Source: Callorhinchus milii
Taxonomy: Eukaryota
Direction of reading: 5' to 3'
DNA: 64,000 nt
Assembly: GCF_018977255.1 (NCBI RefSeq)
Contig: NW_024704742.1
Location: 76,076,001-76,140,000, forward strand
The translations under genes were made by a program, and so were the position numbers. Positions 4,665 through 62,623 of the stretch are shown one piece after another; position 1 is the first letter of the stretch; each line of letters opens with the position of its first letter. Under the pieces are notes generated by a model that saw only the letters and a list, made by a program, of their open reading frames with translations, did no database searches and had not been told where the DNA came from.

Positions 4665-6165
4665 GGTCACCCAGCCCCCCTCCTCTGCCCACTACTGGCT
4701 GATGTCATCAATTAATCCCTCTCCTCTGGATCAGTCGCTGCCCCCCTCAAAACTGCTGTCATCACCCCACTCCTCAAAAAACCTTCCCTAGATCCCTCAA
4801 ACCTCAGCCACTACCGCCCTATTTCAAACCTGCCCTTCCTCGCAAAAGTCCTAGAACGCATTGTTGCCATTCAACTTCGCGCGCACCTCTCCTCCCACTC
4901 CCTCTTCGAACCCCTCCAGTCTGGTTTACGCCCTGCCCACAGTACAGAGACTGCGCTTGTGAAAGTCTCAAATGACATCTTCTCTATCTGTGACCAGGGA
5001 TCCCTCTGCCTCCTTGTCCTCCTGGACCTCGCCTCGTTCAAGTCCTACCTCACGAACCGCCAGGAGTACATCTGTACAAACGGCTTCTCCTCCCGCTCTC
5101 ACCCGGTTACCTGTGGGGTACCCCAAGGATCCATCCTTGGCCCCCTCCTCTTCCAAATCTATATGCTCCCTCTTGGGGATGTCATCCGCAGACATGGGGT
5201 ACGCTTCTACATGGATGCGGACAACACCCAACTCTATTTTCCACCTCTCTTTGCGACCCCCAGTCCCCTGATGTTCTGTCAGCCTGCCTGTCAGATCTCA
5301 GGAGCTGGATGAGCGCGAATTTCCTTCAGCTAAATGTTGACAAGATGGAAGCCATACTCTTTGGCTCTCGTCAACGTCTAAAATCACATGGTTCTCACCT
5401 ACTCCACCTACCCGACCTCCCCCTAAAAACCTCCGAACCCGTATGCAACCTAGGCGTCAGGTTCAACGCCCAATTATCCTTCCTCCCCCACATCCGGTCC
5501 CTCACCAGCACTGCTTTCTTCCATCTCTGACTCGTCGCCCGTCTCCGCCAATACCTCTCTCTGAAAGCCACTGAAACCCTGGTCCATGCCTTTGTCACCT
5601 CTCGGCTGGACTATTCAAATGCCCTCCTCGCCGGTCTCCCCTCCACTAACATCCATAAAATCCAGGTCATCCAGAACTCTGCCGCCCGCATTCTTTCCCA
5701 CCCCAAACTCTGCTCCCCGATTACTCCAGTCCTTGCCAGACTGCATTAGCTGCCTGTCACAGAGAAGATCCACTTCAAGATTCTCACTCTTGTCTTCAAA
5801 TCCCTCCACTCCTCTGCATCCCACCCTACCTCTCTGACCTCCTCTCTCCTCACAACAGTATACCCGTTGCCTTCACTCCACCGGGTCTGACCTCCTCGTC
5901 CCGCGAATCCTCCGCTCCACCATCGGCGGCCACGCTTTCAGCCACTACGCACCGAGGCTTTGGAACTCCCTTCCTCACTCCCTTCGCCTCACCCGCCCCC
6001 CCTTCCTATTTTCAGGTCTCAGCTGAAGGCCTTTCTTTTCGACCGCGCATTTGGTCACCTTCTTCCCCCTCCCCCTGGCTCGGCCCGGGATCTGTTGCTG
6101 TGAAGTGCTTTGAGACGCCGTCCGGCGTGGAGGGCGCTATATAAATCCAAGCTGTTGTTGTTGTA
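4665..6165 (+). mobile_element. L2-clade LINE, 5'-truncated, decayed reverse transcriptase
   Basis: RT motifs [48 protein letters not shown], with stops and frameshifts; 3' end gcgctatataaat...(tgt)n. Confidence 0.9.
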
Positions 6166-16542: not shown

Positions 16543-17121
16543 GTCCAACTCCCTGACACAATCCAACTCCCTGACACAGTTCAAACACCTGACACAGTCC
16601 CACTCCCTGACACAGTCCAAACACCTGACACAGTCCCACTCCCTGAAACAGTCCAAACCCCTGACACAGTCCAAACCCCCGACACAGTCCAAACCCCCGA
16701 CACAGTCAAACTCGCTGACACAGTCCAAACCCCTGACACAGTCCCACTCCCTGACACAGTCCAACTCCCTGACACAGTCCAAACCCCTGACACAGTCCAA
16801 CTCCCTGACACAGTCCAACTCCCTGACACAGTCCAACTCCCTGACACAGTCCAAACCCCCGACACAGTCAAACTCCCTGACACAGTCCAAACCCCTGACA
16901 CAGTCCAAACCCCTGACACAGTCCAACTCCCTGACACAGTCCAAACCCCCGACACAGTCAAACTCCCTGACACAGTCCAAACCCCTGACACAGTCCAACT
17001 CCCTGACACAGTCCAAACCCCTGACACAGTCCAAACCCCTGACACAGTCCAAACCCCTGACACAGTCCAACCCCCTGACACAGTCCAAACCACTGACACA
17101 GTCCAACTCCCTGACACAGTC
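16543..17121. repeat. 18-bp minisatellite, about 32 copies (gtccaaacccctgacaca / gtccaactccctgacaca)
   Basis: Directly visible tandem array. Confidence 0.97.
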
Positions 17122-19559
17122 AAGGTCAAGTTGTGTCATGTGTGTGTTTAGCAGCAATCTTGTCTTGAGAAGCCTGGCAGCCAAAGTGCTGTGTATAAAT
17201 GAATGGACCTTTCTTATATTGCTGCAGGGGAAACATCTTCAGACTTCACTCACAGCGATCGCGGTGTTGTACTAGACACAGAGAGTCACTGATAATAACA
17301 TAGGATAGCTGCGAGTAAATAACATTTACTTTCTAACCATTGTACGTGACCCTGGGCACTGGGAAATCACGGTGACAGAGTGCCCATGCCTATCTACTAT
17401 TTCTACAGTTGAAAAAGTAAACGTGCGCCTAGTTTACAACTGTAAGCCATTGTGTTGGGTGTATTAACTGAAAAGGGATAGTCTCATTTGTGTATATGTG
17501 TGACTGTAAATAGGGGCAGTCTATAGCACTGTACATGTATAGAACTGGTGTGTGCTGTCAGTGGGTGTTGTGTTGAGGGGGTGCATTAATGCGTGTACAA
17601 CAGTGTATTGCTTTGCGGATTCATTTGTGACATTTCATAACAGTACTGATATGATGTTATGAAATGTTGCAAATTTATCCCCTTTGTATGTGTAGGTAGG
17701 TTATGTGTGTGTGTATGTGTGTGTAGATGATTATGTGTGCGGGTGTGGAGGAGGGGGGGGAGGATTATTTGTATCTGTGTGGGGGGGGGGAGGATTATTT
17801 GTGTGTGTGTGTGTTGGGTGGGGGGTGTTTGTAGTGTTTGTTTCATCTGTAGTGTAATGACCTTGTGCAGTTCTACTGTGCGGGAGAGGAGAGTGCATGA
17901 GGTTAGGTTCTTTCTGAATGATTTCATAGATTCATAGAATTATAATAATAATCCTTGCATTTGATATAGCGACTTTTCACATCTTCTAGACATCTCAAAG
18001 CGCTTCGCAGAATATACTGTAAAGTGAATTGACTATAATTGTGGGCGAAACGTGCAAGGCAGTGTCCCACAAATAGTTGTGGATTCAAGTGACCAATTTA
18101 TTATTTTTTTCTTGAGGGATTACTATCAGGCGTGTGAAGTAAGGAAACTTGCCCAAAGTTTCGCCCTGCTGGAAATCGAACCAGGTCTCTCGCTAGCAAG
18201 GCAAGTGCTTTAACCACTGAGCTACAGGACCAATTATGCAACACAGAAGGAGGCCATTTGACTATCCAAGAGCTATCCAAATCAATCCCACTCCCCCGCG
18301 CTCTCCCCATAGCTCTGCAAACGTGCTCTCCCCAAATAATCATCTAATTTGAAGAAGGTTGACCCAGAGAGAGAACGACCCGGGGTCTGAGTGGGTGTAT
18401 ACATGACTACATTGGGTAGAAATTCCATTGTAGTTTTTACTCATTTTTCTCAGTTCTTCAGATCGTCTCAAAATATGGCCCATACTTCGAAACAGTCTTC
18501 AGTTAAAATAAATAATAATAAATAATAGAAATAAATAAAATAAAAATAAATAAGAAATAATAGAAATAACAAAAAAAACAAAGAAACATTAGCTTTCAAG
18601 TGGGACTGAATTTGACAATCTTACCAAATTCCGGATGATCTGAAATGCTAATAAATCAGAAGAAATCGTGACCCAGAGTAAATTTGTGCCCCCAATATAG
18701 CCATTACCTTGTCGTTTTCTCTAAGGAACATCCTTCCTTCCCCCAAATAAAAGCATCCAGCCATCCAGCTATCATCATTCCAGGCAGGGCGAAACCTTGG
18801 GCAAGTTTCCTTACTCCACCCGCCTAATAATAATCCCTCCAAAAAAAACAATAATAAATTGGTCATATTCAATCTACGACTGTTTGTGGGACATTGCTGT
18901 GCGCAATTGGCTGCCGCGTTCGCCCACAAATATGCAGTCAATTCACTTTACAGTGTGTTCTGTGAAGCGCTTTGGGACGTCTTTCCGACGTGAAAAGCGC
19001 TATATCAAATGCAAGGATTATTATTATTATTATTATGCACTGCCCTCATCCCCGCCCTGTATGAGCCTCCTGCAGCCCAGACAGAGATGGGTGTCTCACT
19101 GTGGCAGCCGCCCGGACAGGAGCCGCTCTCTGTGGAGCAGCAGCAGGAGCCGGGGGTGGGGTGGGGTGGGGTGGGGACATGTTGTTGTGAAGTCCTCACT
19201 TTCTCCCCCCCCCCCCCCCCACCCCAGTCACAGACACATGTTGGGCTATGGCGCCCTCAATAGTAAGAGGCAGAGCTTGGAAGTATCTGTTGAGATTGTT
19301 TTCCACCACCATCACCTGGTAATCCCCCCCCCACCCCCACACACACACACACATACACACACCACTGACATTAACCAGCACCGACATACCGGTCAGAGGC
19401 AGACACGGGGGGGGGGGGGGGGGCTCTGACACCACTTGCGGTTTGGAGGGCAGAGGTACATGCTGGAGGGGGGGAGGGGGGGGGCTGTGTGCATCTGACC
19501 CCTCCACCCCTTCCATTGCAAGTGCGCGGTACAAACATCCCGAAAGAATAGCAGCACCG

Positions 19560-19982
19560 CCCGCCCTGTGCTGCCCTGTGCTGCCCTGCCCTGTGATGCC
19601 CTGCCCTGTGCTGCCCTGTGATGCCCTGCCCTGTGATGCCCTGCCCTGTGATGCCCTGCCCTGTGCTGCCCTGTGATGCCCTGCCCTGCGATGCCATGCC
19701 CTGCCCTGTGCTGCCCTGTGATGCCCTGCCCTGTGCTGCCCTGTGATGCCCTGCCCTGTGCTGCCCTGCCCTGTGATGCCCTGTGCTGCCCTGCCCTGTG
19801 CTGCCCTGTGATGCCCTGCCCTGTGATGCCCTGCCCTGTGCTGCCCTGTGATGCCCTGCCCTGCCCTGTGCTGCCCTGCCCTGTGCTGCCCTGCCCTGTG
19901 ATGCCCTGTGCTGCCCTGCCCTGTGATGCCCTGCCCTGCCCTGTGATGCCCTGCCCTGCCCTGCCCTGTGCTGCCCTGTGCT
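19560..19982. repeat. Compound pentamer satellite (gccct / gtgat / gtgct units)
   Basis: Directly visible; source of the multi-frame QGRA/ALPC ORFs. Confidence 0.95.
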
Positions 19983-20900
19983 CTCGCCCCCCAGCGATTG
20001 AAGAGATGCAAACACGTGGCAGCGGAGTGATGAGCATCAACACCACCCAACTCTATTGTCCTTCCTCACGTTCACAGGAGCCCACGGCCGCGGCCCCCAG
20101 TGAGGAGCATCTCCACTGAGGCACTGAGGCACTGAGGGACAGGTCTCTCTCTCTCTGTCTCTTTGTTACCGGCATCTGCTGTGGTGTCTCTCTGCTCCGG
20201 GTTTAGTGCAGAGGCGATCTCAAGCTCTCCCTCTCAATCGGATCGCTTTTTAAAATGTTTCACACTCCCCCCCTCCCCCCCCCCCCCCCCACACACACAC
20301 ACACACAAGTAACTCAAAACACTAACCACGTTTGCAACGCTGTCATCTACTTTCTCTCTGTGTCTCTCTCTCACACACACAGACACACACACACACGGGG
20401 TGAGAAGCGAAGCGCCGACGGGTCGGGTTGAGCGCTGCGCCTTGTGTCGGAACAGCAGCAAAAGCGACTCGGATCTCTGAAGGGACTCTTTTTCAAAAGT
20501 CTCCCAACTCTCTGCCCTCCCGCTTCCATCTTACCTCGGACTGGATCTGCGCTGCAGCCGCTGGTCAGTCTGGGTGGAAGTGGTCAAAATCCCAGGGAGA
20601 GGGGGAGAGGGAGAGGGAGGAGGGAGGGAGGGAGAGAGGGAGGGAGGGAGGGAGAGACAGTGAAAGCCCCGACCAGCTTTCTGACCCTTGGAGTCGGCAA
20701 GACTTTCACACCATGAGGCTGTGGCTACAAGACGAGCATTTCCTTCCCCTCCTCCTGAGACTGTGGGCTTGTGACTCAGAGAGGACGCCGAACTCACTCA
20801 CTCACTCACTCACTCACTCACTCGGTCGGTCAGTGTGTGTGTGTGTGTGTGGCTGCTTTGTGTCTGTGAGTGAGAGTGGGTCAGGGAGTGAGTGAGTGAG
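19980..20900. promoter_or_regulatory. CpG-enriched, GC-rich putative SLC4A4 promoter region
   Basis: Many CpGs (e.g. gaagcgccgacgggtcgg, gcgctgcgcc) against a CpG-poor background; (GGGA)n purine tract at ~20595-20655; flanked by microsatellites. Confidence 0.5.
20535..20800 (-). other. SLC4A4: Candidate non-coding first exon (5' UTR) of SLC4A4; 5' boundary uncertain
   Basis: Strong minus-strand donor CCGAG|gtaaga at 20535/20534 within a CpG-enriched region upstream of the acceptor-led coding exon; mammalian NBCe1-B also has a non-coding exon 1. Confidence 0.55.
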
Positions 20901-21260
20901 TGAGTGAGGGTGAGAGAGTGAGTGAGGGTGAGAGTCAGTGAGTGAGAGAGTGAGTGAGTGAGTGAGGGTGAGAGTCAGTGAGTGAGAGTGAGTGAGTGAG
21001 TGAGTGAGGGTGAGAGAGTGAGTGAGGGTGAGAGTCAGTGAGTGAGAGTGAGTGAGAGAGTGAGTGAGGGTGAGAGAGAGAGAGTGAGTGAGGGTGAGAG
21101 TCAGTGAGAGTGAGTGTGAGAGTCAGTGAGTGAGAGTGAGTGAGAGAGTCAGTGAGTGAGTGTGAGAGTCAGTGAGAGTGAGTGAGAGTCAGTGAGAGAG
21201 AGTGAGAGTCAGTGAGAGAGAGTGAGAGTCAGTGAGTGTGTGAGAGAGAGTGAGAGTGGG
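20884..21260. repeat. Compound (GAGT)/(GA) microsatellite; inverted (CACT)n at ~20792-20823
   Basis: Directly visible. Confidence 0.95.
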
Positions 21261-26609: not shown

Positions 26610-26641
<32 letters not shown>

Positions 26642-29600
26642 CCTTGCATTTGATATAGCGCTTTTCACGTCAGGAGGACGTCCCAAAGCGCTTCACAGAA
26701 CACACTGTAAAGTGAATTGACTGTATATTTGTGGGCGAACGCGGCAGCCAATTGCGCACAGCAATGTCCCACAAACAGTCGTAGATTGAAAATGACCAAG
26801 TTATTATTGTTTTTGGTTTTGGAGGGATTATTATTAGGCTCTGTGTGGAGTAAGGAAACTTGCCCAAGGTTTCGCCCTGCCTGGAATTGAACTCAGGTCT
26901 CTCACTTGCAAAGCGAGTGCTCTAACCACTGAGCTACAGGACTCCACGATAAAGTGGATGATCCATTTTTTCCAGGGACGGATGACCAGGACAAGAGGAG
27001 AAACTCCCTTCTCTTTTTGAATAGTGGCATGGAATCTTTAATGTCCACTTGAAAAGGCAGAGTGTGGCCAGGTTTAACATCTCATCCAAAGGATGAGATC
27101 TCCTCATGACATCTCATCTAACTTCAATAAATCGGCATTCTACCAACACTGCTACTGGAGTGCCAGCCACGACTAGGAGCTTAGCAAGCCAAAAAGGAAT
27201 GTGCAACATTGCAAAAAATATAGATATGTCATAATTCTGATGCTATAAATATGTGCGTACAAAATATGTACATTTTGCCCAATTGCATATACCACCAGAA
27301 CAATGAGCACTGAGATCTGGGATTAGTTTTCTGCTGGTTCCTGTACTGGGAATATGGTGTTTCAGAGCATTCTTTGTCTCCTTAATAAAGTGAAAGAGCA
27401 AAACTGGCTACATCCAGAGATCTCTTTGAACCAAACCAAGCTGAGATTTCCCTGCATCCCACCTGCACATGGAAATCCCAGAGATAGATTGTTGGAATGG
27501 AATGCGCACTCTCTCCCTGGAGGGAAGCAACTGAATTACTTAATCCCAGAAAGTATTAGGTGCAGGCTGGCAAGATCAAAGGCTTGAGGACCCTAGAGTG
27601 TGCGTTGGGGTACTGCTGGAGTCTAACCAACTAAAACTGCATAGCTTGCCATTATGAACACTGTCTGGGAAGCTTTCCTGCTGCTTGTCCAGCTAGAACT
27701 GCCCTACCCGTTAGGACTTTGGCTTGCTTTGGCCTGTAATACTGCGGACTCGTCTGGCTCAGGAATTGGACTACCGAGACTGCTACGGAGGGCTGGCTCG
27801 ATACGACATTCTATTGCCAAACATGCCACCTTGGAGCGAGTTTACCTCCCCCCGAGGAGGATAGTCACTAGATGATTGTCCGACATCTGACAAGCGAGGG
27901 TTTGAGCCCTCAATGGGTGGATGCTAGGTTACGTATAAGGATGGAAAGTAGCACTTACTCTTTGAACATTACTGATCAGAGACCACATCCTGAGAAGAAC
28001 TGTTGGTTTTTCTAATACCTTTCACATTATTTCCACACACAGGAATTTTTATGGCTTTTTCCAGACCCTGACAACCATTTGCTAGTTATTCTGTTTTCCG
28101 ACAAACTGTAGTGCCGCTCTCAACCAGGAAAAATCCTGGTTTTCTCAGCTTTGCAGAACAATGTGTATTTTCTTTTCAAGGCGAGGATAGCAGACGCATT
28201 GAAGTGATTTGGAACGAAAGAATAACTCACATTTTTATACCATCTTGGAATGTCAAAACATCTCCAAGCACTTCACAAACTAATAGATGTCACAAGTGTG
28301 GCATCTGCTTTTGTTGGCAAACCCAACAGCCATTTGTGCCAGCCAAATCTCACAAACAGTCCTGAGGTGAAAAATCCATTAAGCTGGGGATTGTTTTACA
28401 ATCTGCCACACAAATCTATATTTCCCACCAAGTTCCAAACAACTGCAATTAGCAAAGGGTAATCAATGACTGGAACAGGTTGCCACGAAAAGTGAAAGAC
28501 TCATATAAAAAGCCTTGCTCTCCGTGGTAAGCTATGTAATTTTAACTGGTTAGACTCCAGCAGTACCCCAACACACACTCCGGGGTCCTCAAACCCCCAA
28601 TCTGTGCCTAATACTTCATAATTAGGTAAAAAGGATGAGGCGCTCTGGGAAGAGAGGGTGCATTCCATTCCAAACACAGGAATTTCCATTGGTGGGATGC
28701 ATGGAATCTCAATCTGGTTTGGATACTCAAGCATGGTGATGGTTTTCCGCATTTGTCAGACAACCGGTTTTCCAAACACAACGGAAAGTTTCTTGAGGGA
28801 GACAGTGCACATTGCATTCCAGACACGAGCAAAATATAATGTGAATGTGGAACTCTCAGCCTGACTTGGATCCACTTATGTATGGCGATGAGTTTCCACT
28901 CAGCTGACCAAAACAAAATCTGATTTTGTATCTCTTTTTTTGGCAGCAGTGATTCTTTGGTTAATCAAAACACAAAATACTGCAAATGCTGGAAATCTGA
29001 AAACCAAAACAGAAGTCGCTGGGAACACTCAGCAGGTCAGGCAGCATCTATGGAGAAAGGAAAGTGAGTCAATGTTTCTGGTCTACAACCTTTTGTCAGA
29101 GTTCTGACCCAATTCTTTCAAAGGCTCGTGGACCCAAAACGTTGACTCGCTTTCCTTTCTCCATAGATGCTGACGGATCTGCTGAGTGTTCCCACCGACT
29201 TCTGTTTTTGTTTTCATTCTTTGGTTAATGTTGCCTGTAGAGCGTAAGGGTTGCACCTTCTTAAGAAATTTAGCCCTAAAGTCCATTGATATACTCTTAA
29301 TAATAGCTAAAAAGTGAGAATGTTTCGACAATTAGACTGAATAAAATAAACTGTTGATCAGACTACCATCTATGTACTTCAACCAGTTGAACAGGACGTA
29401 TTTATCTTGTTGTGCCCTCTTGTGGCGAAACTCCTGCATAACTGCTGTATAAAAACTTTCCCTGAGTTTACATTACTTTTGTCGAAATTTCCAATGTATC
29501 TTGTGCCTGTTATTTGTTAGATAACAACTGGTGAAGTTTTGCAGTGGGCAGAGACCACATGGACAGAGCACTTTATTTGTTTCCTTGATTCAAACTTTCA

Positions 29601-42072: not shown

Positions 42073-44906
42073 GTGTACGGTATGAGTGACAGCAAGACCT
42101 TTTGCTCAGCGACACTTCACAGTGTGTTTCACGGAGCCTTGTGGATTATGGCTTAAGATACGTTTATAAAAAGAGACTGCAGTAATTCATGGTTGCCACC
42201 CAGGCATTCTCCATAGGTCTCGGAAAGTGCTTCATGACATTTTAAAATACCTGCCGGCTGCAATTCTGCTGATAACCGCCACAGGAAAATAACACTTTTT
42301 ACAATCCAAGTGAAATGAAGGATGAGGCTTTGAAATCACATAATAGTACATTAATCTAGTAGCACATGAACTTCACTTTTTTATATCAGAACACACAGTC
42401 AGCAGCCCCTTATCTATCTTGTATAACTGTTCCTGGAAAATACAAGCAATACATCTGCTTTAGCTACAAATTTTAAAAAATTACACTCTTGCCTCTAAAT
42501 GTGGGTTCAAGCCCCAGAACTTTTTTTAGATTGTGGTCGGGACTTTGAGCTCGTCTTGGCTGATACGCTAAGGCAGTTCTGTGGTGTGTGGCAATGGTGG
42601 TGGTTGGGAGGGGGGTTTGAGGGCCTCATTGTTTGAGGTGCCATTCTTCAGATAAAACATTAAATCAAACCTGGCAGCTGAGGGCCTTCTTTATTCAGAA
42701 TAATACTGATCTTGTGAAGAGGAACATTTAAAAGGCTCACTAGTCATATTACAATCTCCTTCTGCCCCAGGAAGGCAGGAACAACGATTGATTAGTGAGA
42801 GCAGGATATCTAAGGTGTCCTGGCTCAGGTGATAGCACTCTTCCCTTAAATCAGAAGCTTATACGCTGCATTGTTTGAGGTGTTGACCTTCAGATGAGAA
42901 GTTAAACAAAGGTCCCATCTGCTTGTTCAAGTGTATGACCATCACTATTGCAAAAGAGAAGAAAGTTTCTCTCGGTCTCCTGGCCAACAATCCTCCTGAG
43001 AAAATGGGCGCTCATCCATGACTGTTTGTGGGACATTGCTGAGTGCAAATTATTATTACATTCTGTTTTTACTTTCATTTTTTAAAAAATGGCATTTCAT
43101 CTTATACTTCACAGATGTGTCAGCCTGGCTCAGTTGGTTGTTTTCTTCTCTCCTCTCCTGAAGGCATTACTACAACTATTGATTTGTCCAGACCCACCTA
43201 TAATGTACCACCCTGCTATGATTGGATTGGGTTGTGGTCAGAAAGCTGTAGCCTTAAGCTCCACTTAGGGAACTTTGAGCCCACTGTCAAGACTGACACT
43301 CCAGTCCAGTGCTGGGAGAGCACTGCATTGTTGGAGGTGTGTCCTTCAGATGAGACAATAAATCGAGATCCCATCTGCGGTATTTCAGTGTACAACAGAG
43401 ATCCACTCTACTTAAAATGAGAAGGGAATTTCTCCTGTCGTTTGGGCCAACATTTCCATAGATTTAAAAAAAACGGTAATTCCTTTCTTAGCTTGTAGGA
43501 CATTGTTGTGTACATATTGGCTGCCACATTTGCCTACAACTATCCAGTCATTATATTTTACAGTAAATTCTGTTTAGCGCTTTGAAATATTTCAAGATTG
43601 TGATAAGACTATATCAAATGCAAGGATTATTATTGTGACCAAACACTTGCTCTCCAGGCTAACACATGAAGAATAGTCACTTGGTTGAGGTGTGCTAGGT
43701 CTTTGGAGCCTATGAACAGTGCTCCAGCCAGAGCTACCACTTTCAGCAAAAAATAGGGGAAACGTTTTGTGGGGAGAAAACAATCTATGAATAATAATAA
43801 AAATGTGCCTTGGATTCAATGAGATGATAAGGCACTCTTATTATATTTTATAACTCAATTTCAAAAAGCAACAAAGGGTTATAGTGAATTAATATCAATA
43901 GTACTGCAATATAAAATGCTTCACTGTAGCCTGAATTTGCTTAGAATGCAGTCAGACTGTGGACCTAATTTGCAGCCTGCTGGATTCCCATCAGCTTGGT
44001 TTTAGCACTAAAACAGCTGACTACTGGGTCATCAAGTAACTGCCAATGTCACTGCAAAATAATCTTGCCTTTGTAATGCCCTTTATCACATCGGAACATC
44101 TGAAAGATCTTCAGAGATATTCACGGACAAGTGACTGTTTTTGTTGGCTAATTCAGAATTTGTTTAACACAAACAGNAAAAAGCTACAAGATGAACAACC
44201 ATTTAAACTGGAGAAGTGTTAGCCAGGGCACTGGAGTAACTTTATTATAATAATATAATCCTTGCATTTGATATAGCGTCTTATCACATTTTCGAGACGT
44301 CTCAAAGAGCTTCACAGAATACACTGCAAAGTGAATTGACTGTAAATTTTGGGGGAAAATGCGGCAGCCAATTGCGCACAGCAGTGTCCTACAAACAGTC
44401 GTGGATTGAGCGACCCAATTGTTATTAAGGGATTATTACTGCCGGAAAAGCGATCTGCTAATCCACTAACAACCGGGATCCTACTTACTGCTAGGTAAAC
44501 AGAGGTGTGTTGAGTAAGTAAACTTGCCCAACATTTCATCCTGCTGGGAATCGAACCCACGTCCTATCGGCTCAGGATCTTTAACGTCCACCTGAACAGT
44601 CAGACACAATCTCGGTTTAATGTGTCATCCATATGACGGCACTCCTGACAGTACCCCTCCCCTAGTCTACACTATTGTAATTCTAGCCTGGGATCTTAAG
44701 TTAGGTGTGGGGTTTGAACCCACAACCTTTTGACCCAGAACAAGAGTGCTGATAATTGAGCTAAACTAACACCTCATGTTCCTTTCAATTGCATTTACTC
44801 GTTAGGTTTTTAGTTCTAATTTGAATGCAATTATGAAGTTGCTTTCAATTGTAATAAATTAAAAAAATTAAAGCATTCTTGAAAATATAAAAAGTTGCTG
44901 CCTTAC

Positions 44907-53189: not shown

Positions 53190-53267
53190 TTATCTGTCTT
53201 TTGTAGTTAGTTTCTCGATCAACTCCTGAAGTGGAGCCAACTCTCTCCTGTCTATGAGGTTAAACTC
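53190..53267 (-). CDS. MOB1B: MOB1B last coding exon (EFNLIDRRELAPLQELIEKLTTKDR*)
   Basis: tttcag|GAGTTT...AGA TAA; contained in ORF 53190..53393. Confidence 0.96.
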   Translation of the reverse strand, partial: EFNLIDRRELAPLQELIEKLTTKDR

Positions 53268-53749
53268 CTGAAAATGAAAGATAAGCAGCATTGAGACACA
53301 ATTCCTGAACGTACTTGCGCTGTACCCGAAATTCACTATGTACACAAAAAGCAGTTTCGCATTTGCACGTCCCATGCAGGTATCTGACACCAAAATAAAG
53401 CTCCAAGCTGGTCAGCCAATGCCAGCAGTTACACAGGAATGTACAGGGCCATTGGGGTCCATCTGGCCAGCAGAGGTTGTTCACCACTGATGTGAGTGAG
53501 GATGCCTCTGTATATCTATCTACACATCCCATTTCCCTAGTCTCCACATTGCTTTAGGTTATAGCCTCAACTCCCTGCCTCCAACCCTCCGACTCCCAGA
53601 TAAACCAAGATACAGGCATCAGGTTCTGCAATGTAAGATGCGTGCACACATTTGTCCTTAAGGATGGATGTCAATGAATTCCTTGGTCTTTCTTTTGATT
53701 CACTGAACCTGGATTCGTCTTACAACCATTCCGCCTGGGCCATTCCTAC

Positions 53750-53913
53750 CTGAACAAAGAAGATAAAGTGCTTGAAGGAGGTATTTAAGTGGGCCTCTTC
53801 CTGCAGCTGGATCACAGAGTCAAAGTGTTGATGGTAAATGTGGGCGTACACACGAAACAGGCGTTTCAGGATCGTCTTCCCCACCGACATAAAATTCTTT
53901 GGGAAAGGAACAC
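53750..53913 (-). CDS. MOB1B: MOB1B exon 5 ([54 protein letters not shown])
   Basis: ccacag|GTGTT...GTTCAG|gtagga; 164 bp; contained in ORF 53720..53932. Confidence 0.96.
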
Positions 53914-54380
53914 CTGTGGAGAAAGCATACATAACCCGTCACCGCAATGCCCTCGTGGTAACAATATTTCACACACACTGTGAATCCCAACACATCATTG
54001 TGCGAGCAGGCGTGGAGGAAGACAAACGATTAGTTCTTTTTTTAGAAAGAATATATTTTCTCTTCCAATGATCCAACCCCCAACTCGGGGGCAAATCCTT
54101 GATTATCCAGTACCTTGGGACATTCCTCCCAATGTGAAAGCTGCTATATAAATGCAATTTGTTATTGTTATTTGTCTGTGTGTTCAGGTGGGCATTAGAG
54201 ATCCATGGCACTCTTGGGTACATCGCTATGTGCAAAATAGTTGTTGTGTTTGGCCTCAAAAGATACAGTCACTACAATATACAGCAAAGGGCTTTGAGAT
54301 GGCCTTCTGACATGAAAGGTGATATATTAATTGAAAGGATTATGATTTTGATATTGGAATGGTCTGATTTAAATGTGTAC

Positions 54381-54514
54381 CTATTTTGGAAGGAAAGAGA
54401 GCCTCATCATCCAGCTGATCTTGTACCCAGGTCATCAGGTAGTCAATGTACTTTGGTGCCGAACATTTGATGGGTTTCTTAATATTTGTTCCGTCAGCCC
54501 AGTGATACTCATAC
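54381..54514 (-). CDS. MOB1B: MOB1B exon 4 (YEYHWADGTNIKKPIKCSAPKYIDYLMTWVQDQLDDEALFPSKIG)
   Basis: atctag|GTATGAG...AAAATAG|gtacac; 134 bp; canonical MOB1 sequence. Confidence 0.95.
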
Positions 54515-55701
54515 CTAGATGAACAGCAAGAAAGAGAGAACCATTCCAGTCATACAAGACAACCAGTTAATCGTCACTACATACATTATCCAACTTTTAT
54601 ATTAACCTTCATATTCCAACACAATAAAACACAAAAATAATAAAAAAATAAATAAAATAAAAATAATTCTATTTCCAATAGGGCAAATTCTTTTTCACAT
54701 ATATCGATGGTTATAAGGACAGGGAGGTGGTGGAAGCAGAAAGTGTTGATTCATTCAGATGCAAATTAGAAGCAGAATAGGTTTATAAATAGCACTTTTC
54801 ACATCTTCGAGATGTCTCAAAGCGCTTTAAAGAATATACTGTAATAATAATAATAATCCTTGCATTTGATATAGCGCTTTTCACGTCGGGAGGACGTCCC
54901 AAAGCGCTTCACAGAACACACTGTAAAGTGAATTGACTGTATATTTGTGGGCAAACACGGCAGCCAATTGCGCACAACAGTGTCCCAAAAGGTTTCAAAG
55001 GGGAATCAGACAAACATCTGATAAGGAATAATATAAATTAAAATGGGGGGTGGGGGGAGAGGAGAAAAAAAGCAAGAGAGACAGACTGAACGAGAGAAGC
55101 AACACATAGACAATGGATCAAACAACCTCCTTCTGTACTGAAAAACTACGATTTTTGCACCAAGGTTCCCCATTCTCAAACCTCGGGGGAAAATAACAAG
55201 TGTAAATTAGAGCGTCAGAAGAAATGAAACCCCGCAGAATCACAGCGCATGCAGCAATCTGACAAGAGGTGAAAAGATAGTTTGCTGCCTCCTGCTCAGC
55301 GATGAAACATATGCAACTGAAATAGTCACTTTGCTGGCTGTCTCACACCCTGAAGTCAGTGCAAAAACAGAGTAAAACATTCAGACACCAGATACTGTTC
55401 AAGCTCAGATAAGCCAACATTCCCATTAAAGTAAACAGCTTGCTCTTGCAGATCGCTGGCACTTTGCTCAGTAAATCTCTGCTAAAAGTTTGTGCCACTG
55501 TTTGACTTGGGCAAAACGATAATTAATTTTGCATGGCCTACTCAACAGCAAATTGCATTTACATAGAGCTCTTCACACAAGATAGCCTCTTAGGGTGCTG
55601 CTCAGCAAACAGACCCTCAGATAGTGACAGGCATAGAAAATAGTTCAGTAAGAAAGCAGAGAACAGGCACTGAACTTGAAACTTTGAAACCTGTGACGCA
55701 C

Positions 55702-55795
55702 TTTGGCCCAGCTGACATGAGGGGGCAGCTCTCCTCAGTACAGAAGTCCGTTATTGTTCCATACAGCATGTTGATCTGGTTAAAGAAGTCCACAG
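55702..55795 (-). CDS. MOB1B: MOB1B exon 3 ([32 protein letters not shown])
   Basis: aaacag|CTGTGG...CCAAA|gtgcgt; 94 bp; phases fit exons 2 and 4. Confidence 0.95.
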
Positions 55796-55938
55796 CTGTT
55801 TAAAAACAAAACATACAAGTGGCTATATTAATATTAGTAGAAGGAGATTTCAAGTGCAGTTTTTTTTTAATTCTTAAAAGAACATATAGAAAACCGGCAT
55901 GTTTTTAAAAAGCAGCAACTTAAACATTTTTGGGGTAA

Positions 55939-56006
55939 CTGATGACCTGGGTACAAGATCAGCTGGATGATGAGGCTCTCTTTCCTTCCAAAATAGGTAC
56001 ACATTT
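55939..56006 (+). repeat. Inverted 68-bp perfect duplicate of MOB1B exon 4 3' half plus donor site
   Basis: Exact reverse complement of 54371-54438; explains the + strand ORF beginning MTWVQDQLDDEALFPSKIG. Confidence 0.97.
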
Positions 56007-57472
56007 CTTATTGTTGACAGTAATTATCCTTACATTTGGTATAACGTCTTCCACATTGGAGGATATCCCAAAGCGCTTCTCAGGATATACTGTGAATTGC
56101 AGTGACTGTGTGATTTGTAGGCAAACACCAATTTTGTGCATAACAATATCCCACAAACAGCCATGAAATGAATGACCAATTTTATTTGGGGATTGATGAT
56201 TTGTTTTCTTGCTTATCATCTACACTAGATAGTGATCCATATATATGTGGAATTCTCTGTCCGGTTTGAATACTCTTTAAGCATGGTGATGGGTTGTGTC
56301 AGACACCCGGCTGTCCAAATAAAATCCACACACCCAAACAGAAAGGAATTTACATTCTGCCCTTGTATCAAGTACAGGTAGAAATTCCACCCAAATCTTT
56401 CTATAGCATTTTAAGCCAGGCAGAATTTCACAAACAACAACAATTGCACTTATATAATGCCTTTCATGTCAGGAGTACATCCCAGGCCGCTTGACAATGA
56501 GGGATTTGCACCTGAGCTGTGGGTTGGGATCAGAGAGCAAGCGGGTATTGTCTTGGATGTCTGACAGACAATCCATCAGGACAGCAGAGGTCCTGGGGCG
56601 AAGGTGGAGGCAGAGAGATAAGAGTTGGGTGTTGCCCAACTCTTATATCCCCGAGCGAGAGCATGTAAATATTAAAAAGGAGCCCTTACAAAAGTAAATT
56701 ATTTTCTGTTTGGGCGTGTGGATTTTATTTGGTGCGAGGGTTAGAGGAGAAGCAATTGGTGGAATTATTTTAACAAGAAAAACATGATCAAAGTTAAGGC
56801 TAAATTCAACAATTAAGCAAATTCTGCACACACTTTGAAATCCTATGAAAATACCCCTTTGTAACATGCTCCGATATAGCACAGTCATGTCGTGGACCTG
56901 ACTGAAGTCAGTACACGTCTGGTTTACTACGCTCACTGGCGAGGAACTGGCCATGCACATGCAAGCAGTAAGTGATATCAGCAATGACCCGGACCACCGA
57001 GGCCGCCACAGTGAGCTGGCTCGATTCCGACATTCTCGATTCCAGCCAGTTCAGCTCCATGGAGATCCCGCTTACCTCTCCCCCAAAGAGGATAGACAGC
57101 ATTAAAATGTGGTGTCTCAGTTTATAGCCTCAAACCACTGCTTTATAACAGAGTCAACCTGTTGAGTACAACAATAACAACGTTCATTTATACAGCATCT
57201 TTCGCAATCGGGTTATGTCTTGGAGATTTTTATAAGACTGGGATTATACACCAAGTAAGAGAGAGGGAACCGAGGGAGGTGGCCCCAGAATCATTCAAAG
57301 AGTTAAGTTTTGAGGCAGGACAAAAAAACAGAAAGAGTGGGGGCCACTAAGAACAAGGTAGAATTTCTCTCCCAAAGAATCTGAAGTCAAAGAGACTGCT
57401 CAGATTGTACATGATAGAGACTGCACCAATTGTACACGATGAGCAGTTTTGAAAGACAAACTTAACCCTTAC

Positions 57473-57639
57473 TATTGACTGCGACCCATTCATTTAGATC
57501 TTCGCCATCGGGCAACATGACAGCCATTCGCAGATTGCCGCTGCCCAGTGTAGCTTCCGCATGCTTCAAGAGCTCATACTGATGGGACCCTTCCGGAATG
57601 TTCTTCTTTGGCTTAAACGTCTTCGATGAACGGCTTCCG
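57473..57639 (-). CDS. MOB1B: MOB1B exon 2 (GSRSSKTFKPKKNIPEGSHQYELLKHAEATLGSGNLRMAVMLPDGEDLNEWVAVN)
   Basis: Manual translation matches MOB1B-type residues (GSRSS, RMAVML, EWVAVN). 167 bp, donor A|gtaagg; expected acceptor reads ttgcAT instead of AG. Confidence 0.93.
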
Positions 57640-60600
57640 ATGCAAAAACAAGAAATGGCTGTAGTTTAAGAGCAGCAACGCAACACAGGCACACACTCAA
57701 GCTGTTACACATAACCTTCACTTTGAAGAGATAGAGATTCAAACTAATCCCCATATATACATCACTACTCCTATAGTCACCACTGCCTCGGTAGATCCCG
57801 CTACTCCCATAGGCTATTAGTCGATTGGAGAATCTCTTTTGGGGTAATAATCACTCCCAAAATAAATAATAAATGTGATAGCCAAATCCATGACTGCTTG
57901 TGGGACATTGTTGTGCGTAATTGGCTATCACATTTTGCCCTCAAAATATAGTCACTCCACTTTACAATATATTCTGTGAAGTGCTTTGAGATTTATCAAT
58001 GACGTGATAAAGCGCTAGTTCAAATACAAGGATTATTATTATTAGTTAACGCTATTATTAGACTCCCAAACTGTACATACACCACTGCCTGTGTATGTGC
58101 CGCCGTCTGCATACGCCTGTTAGATTGGCTCGTGTTACCTTCTCGGGCTCAGATCGGGTACATTTCTAGGCACTTTCTTTCAGTGTTAACTCAGCATGGG
58201 ATGCAAACAAAGTACTGTAGTCAAATAGGAAACCTTCAGATGACTCACACGTCCACCTGATCCATTCTGCTCAGTGAGAAATGGTATAAATGGCACAAGG
58301 TGGCAGAGTTAGTATTAGGATGGGGGTGGGTCAAGCAATAGCACACCACTATCTAGACAACGCTGGCACAAATCCCTTGATATGAAGAACACTTTTCACA
58401 AAGGAAAAAGGAATCCCCTTTCTCAGTCCATTTGAATGCAGCAACTGCAGATATCTGCTTCCCTGGCAGCTACAGTACCAGCTGTGACATGGAGACGCAG
58501 GTTCACTAACTCCATTTGTTTATTCACTCTGACAAACTGAAAGCCTGTATGCTCTATTCCCTCCCTCCAGCATTTCTATTGCTGTTTCTTAGAACAAATA
58601 AACTCACCCAACAAAAGCACTGTGTGTCAGCCTGGCTCAGTTAGCAGCACTCTTGCCTCCGAGTCAGAAGGTTGTGGGTACAAGCCCCCCATCAGCACTT
58701 TGAACTCACATAGTCTAGGCTGACACTCCAGCGCAGTGCTGTTGGAGGTGGCATTCTTCAGATGAGACATTCAAACGAAAGTCCCATCTGACTGTTCAAG
58801 TGGACATTCAAGATCCCACGGCAGTAGTCGAAAACATTTCTCCTGGTATCCTGGCCAATAATCCCCCAGATAAAGTTAGGCATTCACTGTATGGTTGTTT
58901 GTGGGACAGTGTTGCATGCAAATTAGAGTTCCCCTACAAAATACAATCACTACACCTTACATTAAATCTTGTGAAACACTTTGAGACATCCCTGCCAACA
59001 TGAAAGCTGCTGTATTCAATGTAAGGATGATTATTGTGGACCACACTGCTGAATGTAAATTGAAGAGGGATAAGATTCAGCAATGTCAGCCAGCCTCTCC
59101 TCCATTAAAACACCAGACATATTGATTCAGCAACAGGGTATCAGAAGGAGGCAAAAAGGGCCATTGTGAGTGTGCTGGCTCCCCCGTTGCAGTGATCTGC
59201 TCGAATACCATTCCCTCTGCTCTTTCCCGTACTTATCAAAATTAGTTTCCTCAAGTATCCATTCAATTCTCTTTTAAATGCTGTTATTGATTCAGTTTCG
59301 ACAGCCATTTGTGGTGAGGAATTCATTCCAGAGTCAAACAATGTAAAAAATTTCTTACAAGCATGCTCTTTGTGTTCTGGTAATAAACCCCACTTTAGAC
59401 CCTCTTAAAAACAATCCTTGCATGTGCACATTTGTGACTGACTTGCCGATTAGTGGAAATAGCCCTTCTCTATTTACTCTGTCAAAACCATACATTATTT
59501 TGAATCTATTTTATGTGGATCGATAAACCAGCAACGATCTTCCTGTTCCCAGGATCACAAGTCCATCAGATCTATGGCTGTACACTGCCTAAGGGAATTG
59601 GGGACTGACTGCACAATCTGGGCATAATAATAATAACCTTTGCATTTGATATAGTGTCTTATTACATCATCAAGACGTCTCAAAGCACTTCACAGAATAT
59701 ACTGTGAAGTGACTTCACTATATAGTTTGTGGGCAAAACGCTGTAGCAAATTGCAAACAGCAGTGTCCCACAAACAGCCATGGATTGAGTGACCAAATTA
59801 TTCTTATTTATTTATTTGGAGGGATTATTACTTCTGGAAAGCAATCCAACAATTGACTAACAACAGGGTTTCTACTTACTACTAGATAAACAGAGGCCTG
59901 TAGAATAAAGAAACTTGCCTAACGTTTCAGCCTGCCCGGGAATCAAACCTGGGTCCTCTCGCTTGTGAGGTGAGTGCTCTAACCAATATGCTACAGGACT
60001 CCCACTTGTTCAATTCTCCACTGGTCCCACCCATGTTGATGGACTGCACCTGGTGGGGCTAGCATGCAATACTGGAGAAAAACATCAACTGAGAGTTTGT
60101 GTTGTGTGCGCACGTGTGGGGTCCTCTTGTGCACCATTATAACAATAATCCTTGCTTTTGATATAGTACCTACCTCTATAACCTCCTAACCCCTACCATC
60201 TTGTTCTCTCCCTCCGCTCAGCGGGCTCCGGCCTGCTTCACGTCCTCCGCCTCACTCGCCCCACTATTGGTGGGTGGGCCTTCCGCCACTCTGCCCCCAC
60301 CCTCTGGAACTCCATCCCGCAGTCCCTTTGTCTCGACCCCTCACTCGCCACCTCCAAGACCCATCTCTTAGACCCTCCTCTTCAATTGTGCTTTTGATCT
60401 CCCTGCTTCCCCCCTGCCCCACCCCAACTCCCAGCTCGGGTCCGTAACTCTGTCTGTCCAGTGCCTTGGGACGTCCTCCCGATATGGAAGGCGCTATACA
60501 AATGTAATTTTGTTGTTGCTGTAGTGACTTCCCACATCATGTAGATGTCTCAAAACCTGGAAAGTCATGTTCTCAAAAGGCATCCATAACCGGAGCCAGC

Positions 60601-61631
60601 AGCCAAAGACTGCAACTAAACAGCTGCAGTCCTTGGTAAGGAGAGCAAGGCTAGGCTTCCCTATCGCCCAAATTCAGGTCGCGGAAATTAATTTTAGCCC
60701 AGATCAGGACAGAAAGGAGAGGGACACACTGGAAGAAATTAATACATTTATCAGGAATAAGCAACAGGGCATCCCGGCAATCCCAGCCAATCAGTTTAGA
60801 GTCTTTTTGAATAATGCGATGCGATCTTTGTCTGTGTGGCCTTGATTCGACATCGCATCCGAAGGGTGGCACCTCCAGCAATGCAACACACCCCAGCTCA
60901 GGGCTGTCTCGGCTCAGACTATTGGAGTTCAAATCCCAACACAGGGCTTAAACTGACAACCATCTGACTCACAGGCACGATTGCAGCCAACTGAGCCAGG
61001 CTGACACCACCTGAGAGTGAACAGGATTGGGAAACCTGACTTGTTATCCCTCCTAACCCTGGGACACCAAAACCAATCAGCATTATGAGGGCAATGTATA
61101 AACACAAGTTATTGTTTTTGTAGCACCCAAACTGCTGTCCTGGCAGAAATCACCTAATTCAGCACAAACGGTGTATGCTGTGTAGCACATTTCCAGGCAG
61201 GTTCAATTTTTAAACCACCCTCCGTCCCCCATGCAACAGAAAAAATGCTTTGAAAACAACAGCAAATACAATACAAATACAATTGATGGGAGTTTAAGTA
61301 TGCTTGAAAGCCTTCCTGACTGTCCACTGGGCCAGAAATTCCCCTGATGTTAGACTTAAACTTCTCAACAATCCAGACAGTGCAGAATTTTGGCAAATTA
61401 TTCAATCCAGATTTAAATTTGGGAACCTGTTTTCTGTAGGTCTTAAAAGTACCTGGGGAAAACCAGGAGAGGGAATGAGAATTCAACAATTGAACCGAAT
61501 AACCAGGGCTCACACTTTTGAGTACAGAGCCATCGTTTCACATTGTTTCTAGCAAAAGAGCACTGATATACCACCTTATGTCGTTGAGACGTCTCAATAC
61601 GCTTCACAGAATATACTGTAAAATTAATTTG

Positions 61632-62190
61632 GTAGGGCGGGTCGGGCGGGAGACAAGGAGCAGACCGGAGCCCGCTGAACAGAGAAAGCGGGCAGGTTGG
61701 TAGGGAGTCAGCAGGTCAGAGAGGCAGGAGGAGGCAAGGCCGTGGATGGCCTTGAAAGTGAGGACGAGGATCTTGAATTCGATCCTCTGAGAGTTGGGGA
61801 GCGAGTGGAGTCGAGCGAGGGTGGGAGTGATGGGGTTACGGAGCCTGGTGCGCAAGAGTACACGAGCTGCAGAGTTTTGGATGACCTGCAGCTTGTGAAG
61901 GGAGGAGTTGAGAAGGCCGATGAGGAGACAATTTCCATAATCGAGCCTTGAGGTGACGAATGCGTGGGTGAGGGTTTCGGCAGCCTGAGGGGTGAGGCAG
62001 TGGTGGAGTCTGGCAATGTTGCGGAGGTGGTGGTAGGCAGTGCCGGTCATGGCGCGGATGTGGGGGAAAAAGGACAGTTCAGGGTCAAACAAGACACCCA
62101 GGTTCCTGACTGGCTTAGTGAGGTTGAGTGTGCAGCCATGGAAGCTGATGCTGACAGCGCCCGAGACGTTCAGAAGAGGGAGAGGGAGAC
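61632..62190 (-). mobile_element. L2 LINE fragment
   Basis: ORF 61604..62356 contains VRNLGVLFDPELSF, HAFVTSRLDYGN, KLQVIQNSAARVL, RIEFKILVLTFKAIHGLA. Confidence 0.9.
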
Positions 62191-62623
62191 AACTGTCCAA
62201 AAAAAGCCACAGATTTACAGATGCATCATACGTTAAAGACATTGAGACATCAAATCGAGGTCTTGTCTGCATGTTCAGGTGGAAGTTAAAGATCTCGTGG
62301 CACTTTTCGAAAAGAGAATGGAGTTTCTCCTGGTGTCCTGGCCAAAAGTCCTCCAAATAAAATTGGTTGTGAGAAGATTATTATTATTAGGATTATTATT
62401 CTACAAATTCTCACTGGTACGGAGAACAAACATTGGGATTGAATCCCACTTCAAAATGAAGCAGAGGTGCAGTGGGTTATTTTTTACTTAAAGCTTTCTT
62501 AATTGCATTAACCTAATCCCTACTTGCAGTAATTGAAAAAAATAGCTATTTAGATATTTTAACTCCTTTTAACAACAAGCAGTGACCCTCGTTCCTGCAG
62601 CCTTTATTCCGCAGGCACACAGA

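Follow-up and report, generated by a model that had tools for sequence, protein, structure and literature searches.

A probable template-switch insertion, young and possibly still polymorphic, extending an old inverted SINE pair across the exon-4 splice donor of a MOB1B-type gene

How did a perfect antisense copy of the end of an exon, splice donor included, come to lie in another intron of the same gene, and is it of any consequence for that gene? These questions are raised by an inverted repeat in the 64-kb stretch of DNA analysed here (hereafter the window; C1:76076001-76140000), in which the reverse complement of positions 55939-56006 agrees with positions 54371-54438 at 68/68 positions. 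The match had been claimed in an initial annotation of this DNA and was borne out by direct sequence comparison over the window.

The repeat lies within a gene on the minus strand, the MOB1 exons of which were recognised from stop-to-stop frames. The Pfam family Mob1_phocein (PF03637) matches exons 2-5 with E-values from 3e-6 to 2e-22, and the best PDB chains are those of 5b5v, 5b5w and 5b6b, entitled 'MOB kinase activator 1B', with B-type residues in the alignments. Among the matches to solved structures, MOB1B chains rank ahead of MOB1A chains for exons 2 and 3. Judging from these protein-level similarities, the minus-strand gene is of the MOB1B type, closer to MOB1B than to MOB1A, as had been proposed. 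Synteny was uninformative as to MOB1A versus MOB1B, as a scan of 60 ORFs returned Mob1, one RVT_1 and one sub-threshold ATP-sulfurylase match only. Exon coordinates were taken from the splice sites in the sequence together with the reading frames and place exon 2 at about 57473-57635, exon 3 at 55702-55795 (94 nt), exon 4 at 54381-54514 (134 nt; GT donor at 54380/54379) and exon 5 at 53750-53913, all on the minus strand.

Within this gene, the two arms of the repeat can be observed directly. Arm A, the source, covers 54371-54438 (minus strand) and consists of 10 nt of intron 4, including the GT donor, and the last 58 nt of exon 4, a composition that the splice sites and frames confirmed. Arm B, the copy, is found at 55939-56006 in intron 2; there, the exon-4 sense reads on the plus strand, and the segment is antisense in the minus-strand pre-mRNA. 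Between the perfect arms is a spacer of 1500 nt which contains exon 3, and this spacer and the exon coordinates uphold the geometry given initially (arms about 1.5 kb apart, exon 3 between them, arm B in intron 2). When extended, the inverted match comprises 71 nt (54371-54441 and 55936-56006) with a single mismatch at 54439/55938, and the identity of the arms stops abruptly at both ends. The chance expectation for a perfect inverted 68-mer pair in 64 kb is about 2e-32.

The sequence of the arms is otherwise unique. The assembly to which the window belongs (1762 contigs, 991,535,955 bases in total) was searched with the 71-mer and with 161 nt around arm B, and two places only were returned, arm A and arm B. 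A third copy or a paralogue as the source of arm B was rejected, as none was found in this genome search, and a paralogous exon 4 that occurs in the sequencing runs was rejected as well, since its divergence of about 15% is incompatible with a perfect copy. The window contains 110 exact repeats of at least 30 nt; among the 40 longest, the pair of arm A and arm B alone represents unique sequence, and the remaining entries are SINE copies or tandem arrays. Two further local inverted repeats were re-found on the same chromosome, one of 102 nt (96% identity, 344 nt between the arms) and one of 159 nt (99% identity, 616 nt between the arms), the latter adjoining SINE sequence. These two cases suggest that mutations which copy local sequence in inverted orientation happen repeatedly in this genome, and such a recurrence favours reading arm B as a mutational by-product.

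The junctions show that the inserted unit is longer than the arm. It measures 77 nt (55930-56006) and is composed of a 9-nt filler (55930-55938, plus strand), which leads from the recipient flank to the perfect copy, and the 68-nt arm B; within the filler, 55936-55937 match the donor and 55938 does not. The hexamer ACATTT is found directly to the left of the filler (55924-55929, plus strand) and recurs at the end of arm B (56001-56006), so that it precedes the 77-nt unit and also forms its last six bases, either as microhomology or as a TSD-like direct repeat. Its donor counterpart at 54371-54376 reads AAATGT on the plus strand. Inspected by eye, ACATTT directly after the SINE tail occurs in 0/18 other SINE copies listed and is, therefore, not a motif of the family. 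An (ATT)n or poly(A) tail is absent from the 77-nt insert. Hence the junctions carry the marks of a templated insertion of class 2 (TSIP), i.e., microhomology, non-templated bases and no poly(A), while for a class 1 (LINE-mediated) insertion or a SINE 3′ transduction, the tail, a TSD of the whole unit and a near-identical source SINE are all missing. A second templated patch as the origin of the filler was considered on account of an 11-nt exact match at 57837-57847, but rejected, as about 1.5 such matches are expected by chance in the window. A search for a source of the neighbouring 55895-55929 gave low-complexity matches only.

The location of the copy is best understood from the SINEs beside it. 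SINE A, an old element in intron 4 (54200-54370, plus strand), has a body that can be aligned as far as about 54358; the remainder, up to arm A, is a degenerate tail or spacer. SINE B in intron 2 (56007-56195, minus strand) is likewise old and is 5′-truncated, and no more than about 3 nt separate its degenerate tail from arm B. Thus, SINE 3′ tails adjoin both arms in the same relative orientation, with the arms at the inner ends. The two SINEs are collinear in opposite orientation and agree in 109/148 columns (73.6%). Elsewhere in the genome, the best matches of SINE B reach 78-82% (40 of 4964 candidates scored) and begin at query positions 4-25, and the SINE A body has one match at 73%. The similarity of SINE A to SINE B is, therefore, no higher than that of SINE A to others, and the two represent independent old insertions rather than a joint recent duplication. 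No flank motif was found beyond the 5′ end of SINE B, and, with no TSD enclosing SINE B and the copy, these two must have been inserted separately. Co-insertion with SINE B by 3′ transduction was rejected for the low similarity of SINE A and SINE B (only 73.6%) and the lack of a near-identical SINE (best match 82% in the 40 of 4964 candidates scored), and Pol III read-through from SINE A because, by eye, T-runs are present both within the tail and 14 nt inside the arm. A young SINE is also present in intron 3 inside the loop (54842-55000, minus strand); it has exact stretches of 46-64 nt in common with copies at about 18935-19036 and about 26626-26736.

The initial annotation overlooked that the arms form the inner extension of this pre-existing inverted pair of old SINEs. 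In the minimum free energy (MFE) fold of 54180-56220 as DNA, 70 arm-arm pairs are contiguous with 101 SINE-SINE pairs, and as modelled by this fold, the perfect 68 bp are the inner extension of a SINE-SINE quasi-palindrome of about 250 nt with an old and imperfect outer part. The identity of the arms does not reach into the SINE tails, and the SINE homeology was therefore not itself the copied tract. The window contains 19 SINE 3′ ends, and a random site would fall within 3 nt of one of them in about one case in a thousand by rough, post-hoc arithmetic; it is, therefore, improbable that the copy is in register with the partner SINE by accident. As the inverted pair of old SINEs accounts for the location, a mutational by-product is the simplest reading of the copy.

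Sequencing runs were analysed as stored contigs at 80% likeness, and the results given here cover the pieces listed. Logan contigs are built with k=31. In X2, a DNA-type run of organism A, one contig ends at 54400 and another starts at 54409, in both cases exactly 30 nt inward from an end of the 68-nt repeat. Breaks at such points arise in a 31-mer graph only if the repeat has two contexts, as it would with arm B present in X2; the paralogous exon 4 that differs by about 15% in the runs would predict other break points. The contig ends of X2, a run possibly not independent of the source sample of the assembly, thus support the presence of arm B. Around arm B, the contigs of the same run end at 55930 and restart at 56005 (depth 3.66, compared to 8.5-12.6 for the neighbours), rather than 30 nt inside the arm. 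A heterozygous empty allele was rejected as the cause of these two ends, since simple deletion alleles predict ends that are 1-4 bases off. Among the contigs listed, none spans either junction of arm B, and the stretches without listed cover, 55931-56004 in X2 and 55730-56165 in X1, carry no weight as evidence of absence.

A second run, X1, represents another haplotype, with non-reference letters at 53978 and 54224. Its depths of about 200-740 in exons and about 9-12 in introns, together with contig ends at 54408 and 55729, where branch points between spliced and unspliced forms are expected, suggest an RNA-type run that contains both forms. A contig of this run (53886-54408) crosses the boundary 54370|54371 unbroken, where a break would be expected were arm B present in the sample. 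Comparing the contig patterns of X2 and X1, the insert may be polymorphic. Since X1 may lack the insert, its apparently canonical splicing of exons 3-4-5 is uninformative on carriers.

The age of the copy can be estimated from relatives. Relative B has a contig with alignments at 55078-55311 and at 55598-55894, and relative C has one with an alignment at 55773-55894; both run on for 121-122 nt unaligned, and in the pieces listed homology is lost 41 nt before arm B. Among the listed pieces, intron stretches of relative B show differences to the window of about 9-15% (34/234, 52/570 and 50/451). If arm B were older than the split from relative B, about 3-5 changes would be expected in 68 nt, but 0 are observed (Poisson P about 0.01-0.05). 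On this comparison of sequences, the copy is probably younger than the split from relative B, unless it was homogenised, and the former description of the copy as recent is plausible.

What the copy could do in the pre-mRNA was assessed by folding. The RNA duplex of the two arms (68 bp) has a predicted energy of -134 kcal/mol, the MFE structure of a 1741-nt pre-mRNA stretch contains all 68/68 pairs, and about 100 kcal/mol of predicted MFE are lost when arm B is forbidden to pair. The pre-mRNA duplex that had been proposed is, therefore, supported as a thermodynamic prediction. The predicted stem includes the donor of exon 4 and leaves exon 3 in the loop, and the inverted SINEs in introns 2 and 4, with 101 predicted pairs, bracket exons 3-4 as flanking repeats do in circularising exons. 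In carriers, the predicted structure of the pre-mRNA is an extended stem with about 100 SINE-SINE pairs and 68 perfect pairs. Effects on splicing and editing are known for distant pairings within pre-mRNA and for complementary sequences in introns (PMC8052449, PMC1920255). In X1, no variant letters occur in 54381-54438 among the rows listed, from contigs that drop rare variants and a run that may lack the insert. The insert likely has no or only a small consequence, as a neutral by-product; the splice-regulatory, ADAR or siRNA role proposed initially would be hypothetical.

Based on these results, we consider it moderately probable (roughly 60%) that the locus is a young, possibly still polymorphic 77-nt template-switch insertion by which an inverted repeat of two old SINEs was extended over the donor of exon 4. 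The structure of the locus, the restriction of the arms to two places in the genome and the separate origin of the old SINEs are established by the sequences, while the order of events is inferred as follows. Before the insertion, the two old SINEs, A in intron 4 and B in intron 2, would have been an imperfect inverted pair arranged tail to tail, and the hexamer AAATGT/ACATTT would already have been common to the sequence just inside each SINE tail. Replication or the repair of a break would then have given rise to a template switch mediated by microhomology. The growing strand at the tail of SINE B would have copied the sequence beside the SINE A tail and then returned, and the quasi-palindrome would have been lengthened inward by 62-68 perfect base pairs. 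The distance of 1.5 kb counts against a template switch, as it exceeds the short-range events modelled for this mechanism (PMC5453318); SINE-SINE pairing as seen in the modelled fold could have brought the distant sites together. The unbroken X1 contig at arm A and the X2 contig ends at 55930 and 56005 likewise weigh against this reading, and among the pieces listed there is neither an empty site nor a contig across an arm-B junction. We favour DNA as the template, while nascent pre-mRNA is possible. The initial annotation had described the copy as a DNA-level insertion and not a retrocopy, which holds in so far as the intron bases in the copy exclude spliced mRNA as the template, but goes too far with respect to unspliced pre-mRNA, which would still be a possible template.

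Indeed, an RNA-templated patch is conceivable, although we regard it as unlikely. A nick or break at the SINE B tail would have been extended by reverse transcription on the gene's own nascent unspliced pre-mRNA, by a LINE reverse transcriptase or by polymerase theta acting on RNA; a 3′ end ...AAATGT would have primed at ACAUUU 10 nt into intron 4, and the hexamer would be a target-site duplication. A cDNA of sense pre-mRNA joined to a minus-strand 3′ end ending in AAATGT yields the inverted copy observed, the inserted unit shows a 6-nt flanking repeat and a 9-nt filler, and it is located at a SINE tail. Further, the window holds an RVT_1 ORF, its young SINE copies show retrotransposition activity, and class 2 templated insertions have been proposed to use RNA (PMC5110952). 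However, the insert has no tail, RNA and DNA templates yield identical sequence, and the register with the inverted SINE pair is more naturally explained by pairing of DNA strands. The same register, with a SINE beside each arm in the same relative orientation, would also be expected of an old inverted duplication of a block containing the SINE and the end of exon 4, in which the SINE diverged while gene conversion from the exon preserved the identity of the 68 nt. This scenario appears very improbable, as the similarity between SINE A and SINE B (73.6%) does not exceed that of either SINE to copies unrelated to the pair (73% and 78-82%), the 77 nt are set apart as an insertion of their own by the filler and the hexamer repeat, and a sharp-ended conversion tract of 68 bp directly beside 26% divergence is unlikely.

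An error of the assembly, with the inverted 77 nt present in the assembled sequence only, would agree with the lack of a contig across the arm-B junctions among those listed and with the X1 contig that has no repeat-boundary break at arm A. Yet the ends at 54400/54409 in X2 agree with the repeat boundaries to the nucleotide, assemblers do not usually err by creating a short internal inverted insert that has microhomology and filler, and two similar structures exist elsewhere on the chromosome; we hardly expect such an artefact. If the insert is real, it could also have been kept as a functional cis-antisense element that controls MOB1B by splicing, circularisation, ADAR editing or small RNAs. 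The predicted duplex is strong (-134 kcal/mol, with about 100 kcal/mol of the MFE depending on arm B), exon 3 is enclosed by the arms and by the SINE pair, which extend to the exon 4 donor, and regulation by long-range pairing in pre-mRNA and by intronic editing-complementary sequences is known (PMC8052449, PMC1920255). On the other hand, a conservation signal is missing, with the contigs of relatives B and C losing alignment at 55894 in the pieces listed, and perfect identity is also expected of a new neutral copy. Mutational scars at the junctions and the recurrence of similar inverted copies elsewhere on the chromosome argue in the same direction, as does exon 4 in X1, which is free of variant letters among the rows listed, bearing in mind that contigs hide rare variants and that X1 may lack the insert. 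Selection for such a function is, in our view, quite improbable.

The template-switch reading has implications beyond this locus. If right, it provides a clean and datable case of template switching at inverted repeat elements that gives rise to long perfect RNA stems in genes, here over a splice donor, in a host whose genome is slowly evolving and in a gene which we take to be a core member of the Hippo pathway. Should the insert be polymorphic, the effect of a new intramolecular 68-bp duplex on splicing, circularisation and editing could be tested directly by comparing carriers with non-carriers. One may go further and speculate, with rather low confidence, that the insert is a segregating, very recent allele in which one template switch put a perfect 68-bp antisense mask over a constitutive MOB1B donor, on a pre-existing inverted SINE pair, and that carriers show allele-specific skipping of exons 3/4, a circular RNA of exons 3-4 or hyper-editing of exon 4. 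If so, the locus would offer a natural comparison of the states before and after a long-range RNA structure came into being.

The insert probably belongs to a known class, the templated or template-switch insertions. In the quasi-palindrome model of Ripley, template switching is a route to perfected inverted repeats; unlike in quasi-palindrome correction, the pre-existing SINE repeat at MOB1B was not itself homogenised. The four-point model of Loytynoja and Goldman, which treats short-range events only, describes how copying of the reverse complement makes inverted repeats and hairpins, classically at imperfect inverted repeats (PMC5453318), and RNA hairpins arising by template-switch mutation have been described as well (PMC8794818). 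Like such mutations, the MOB1B insert is a new perfect inverted repeat able to form an RNA stem, an imperfect inverted repeat (the SINE pair) pre-exists at the site, and microhomology is found at the return. The insert is also the reverse complement of a nearby sequence on the same chromosome (68/68, 1.5 kb), as the four-point model demands. In contrast to the events in PMC5453318, its source is 1.5 kb off, the copied segment of 62-68 nt is long for the model, and a 9-nt filler is present. In comparison with the two re-found inverted copies of 102 and 159 nt, the MOB1B copy stands out by containing the donor of a constitutive exon and by its place at the 3′ tail of a SINE that is old and has no TSD around SINE and copy.

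Class 2 templated sequence insertions, or TSIPs, were reportedly described by Onozawa et al. Class 2 insertions are characterised by microhomology, non-templated bases and no poly(A), with an RNA template proposed (PMC5110952). The MOB1B patch is similarly short and templated, has microhomology and non-templated bases at its junctions, lacks poly(A), and could have had an RNA template. Whereas the donors of TSIPs are described as distant genomic regions, the MOB1B donor lies in the same gene at 1.5 kb and its copy is in inverted orientation. In its 6-nt flanking repeat, the insert is similar to class 1 insertions with their TSD, but other marks of class 1 are missing. Inverted SINE/Alu pairs in flanking introns promote exon circularisation, and the repeats in MOB1B introns 2 and 4 bracket exons 3-4 in the same way. 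Finally, like the editing-complementary sequences of ADAR substrates (PMC1920255), the MOB1B insert is an intronic sequence complementary to the end of an exon. The known duplexes of this kind are conserved and imperfect, whereas the MOB1B duplex is perfect, apparently young, and placed over the donor itself.

Around the perfect inverted copy of the MOB1B exon 4 end in intron 2 (arm B, 55939-56006), the contigs of two sequencing runs and of two related organisms were compared with the window. Among the contigs listed for X2, the DNA-type run, the alignments end at 55930 and start again at 56005, the contig starting at 56005 having a depth of only 3.66. Each of these two positions lies within a T-run, and they are found at opposite edges of the insertion. 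Simple models of an empty allele were tried for the two ends and placed them one to four bases off. In X1, the RNA-type run from another haplotype, the listed contigs have depths of 41-56 in upstream intron 2 (56166-57502) versus 9-12 in introns 3-5 (53243-55729), and the change point falls somewhere across the region of arm B and the adjoining SINE (SINE B). This difference is a hint only, contig depth being a poor measure that is inflated by repeats.

In the listed contigs of both related organisms, the alignment to the window ends at exactly 55894, leaving 121-122 nt unaligned. This shared end point suggests a lineage-specific difference which would begin 41 nt before arm B. Apart from low-complexity matches, no further match to 55895-55929 was found in the window or the genome.

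Three SINE copies (18868-19036, 26622-26790 and, in MOB1B intron 3 between the two arms, 54842-54952) have exact stretches of 46-66 nt in common, including the (ATT)n tail, which indicates that a subfamily of this SINE was recently active. Of the long direct repeats with exact identity in the window, most belong to three tandem arrays (16746-17071, 19582-19925 and 20886-21056) with units of roughly 18-25 nt. Intron 2 also contains a 42-nt inverted repeat (56315-56356/56691-56732; 90% complementary, 334 nt between arms), and its two arms resemble the terminal inverted repeats found at the ends of small, MITE-like DNA transposons.

A reverse-transcriptase ORF fragment (4716-5309, plus strand; RVT_1, E 1e-16) and a 257-aa open frame lacking a Pfam match (61607-62377, minus strand) are probably LINE remnants. 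A weak ATP-sulfurylase match on the plus strand (2128-2463; E 4e-4, 20.3 bits, under the 24.3-bit cut-off) may stem from a PAPSS-like gene, as one of its exons. Only one N is present in the window, at 44177.

On the same chromosome, a NAF1 intron harbors another inverted copy, of 159 nt (in the region L005:1230-1456, C1:20849129-20849355), adjoining SINE sequence at L005:1389. There, the copy seems to be joined to the truncated 5′ side of the SINE, whereas in MOB1B it is joined to the 3′ tail.
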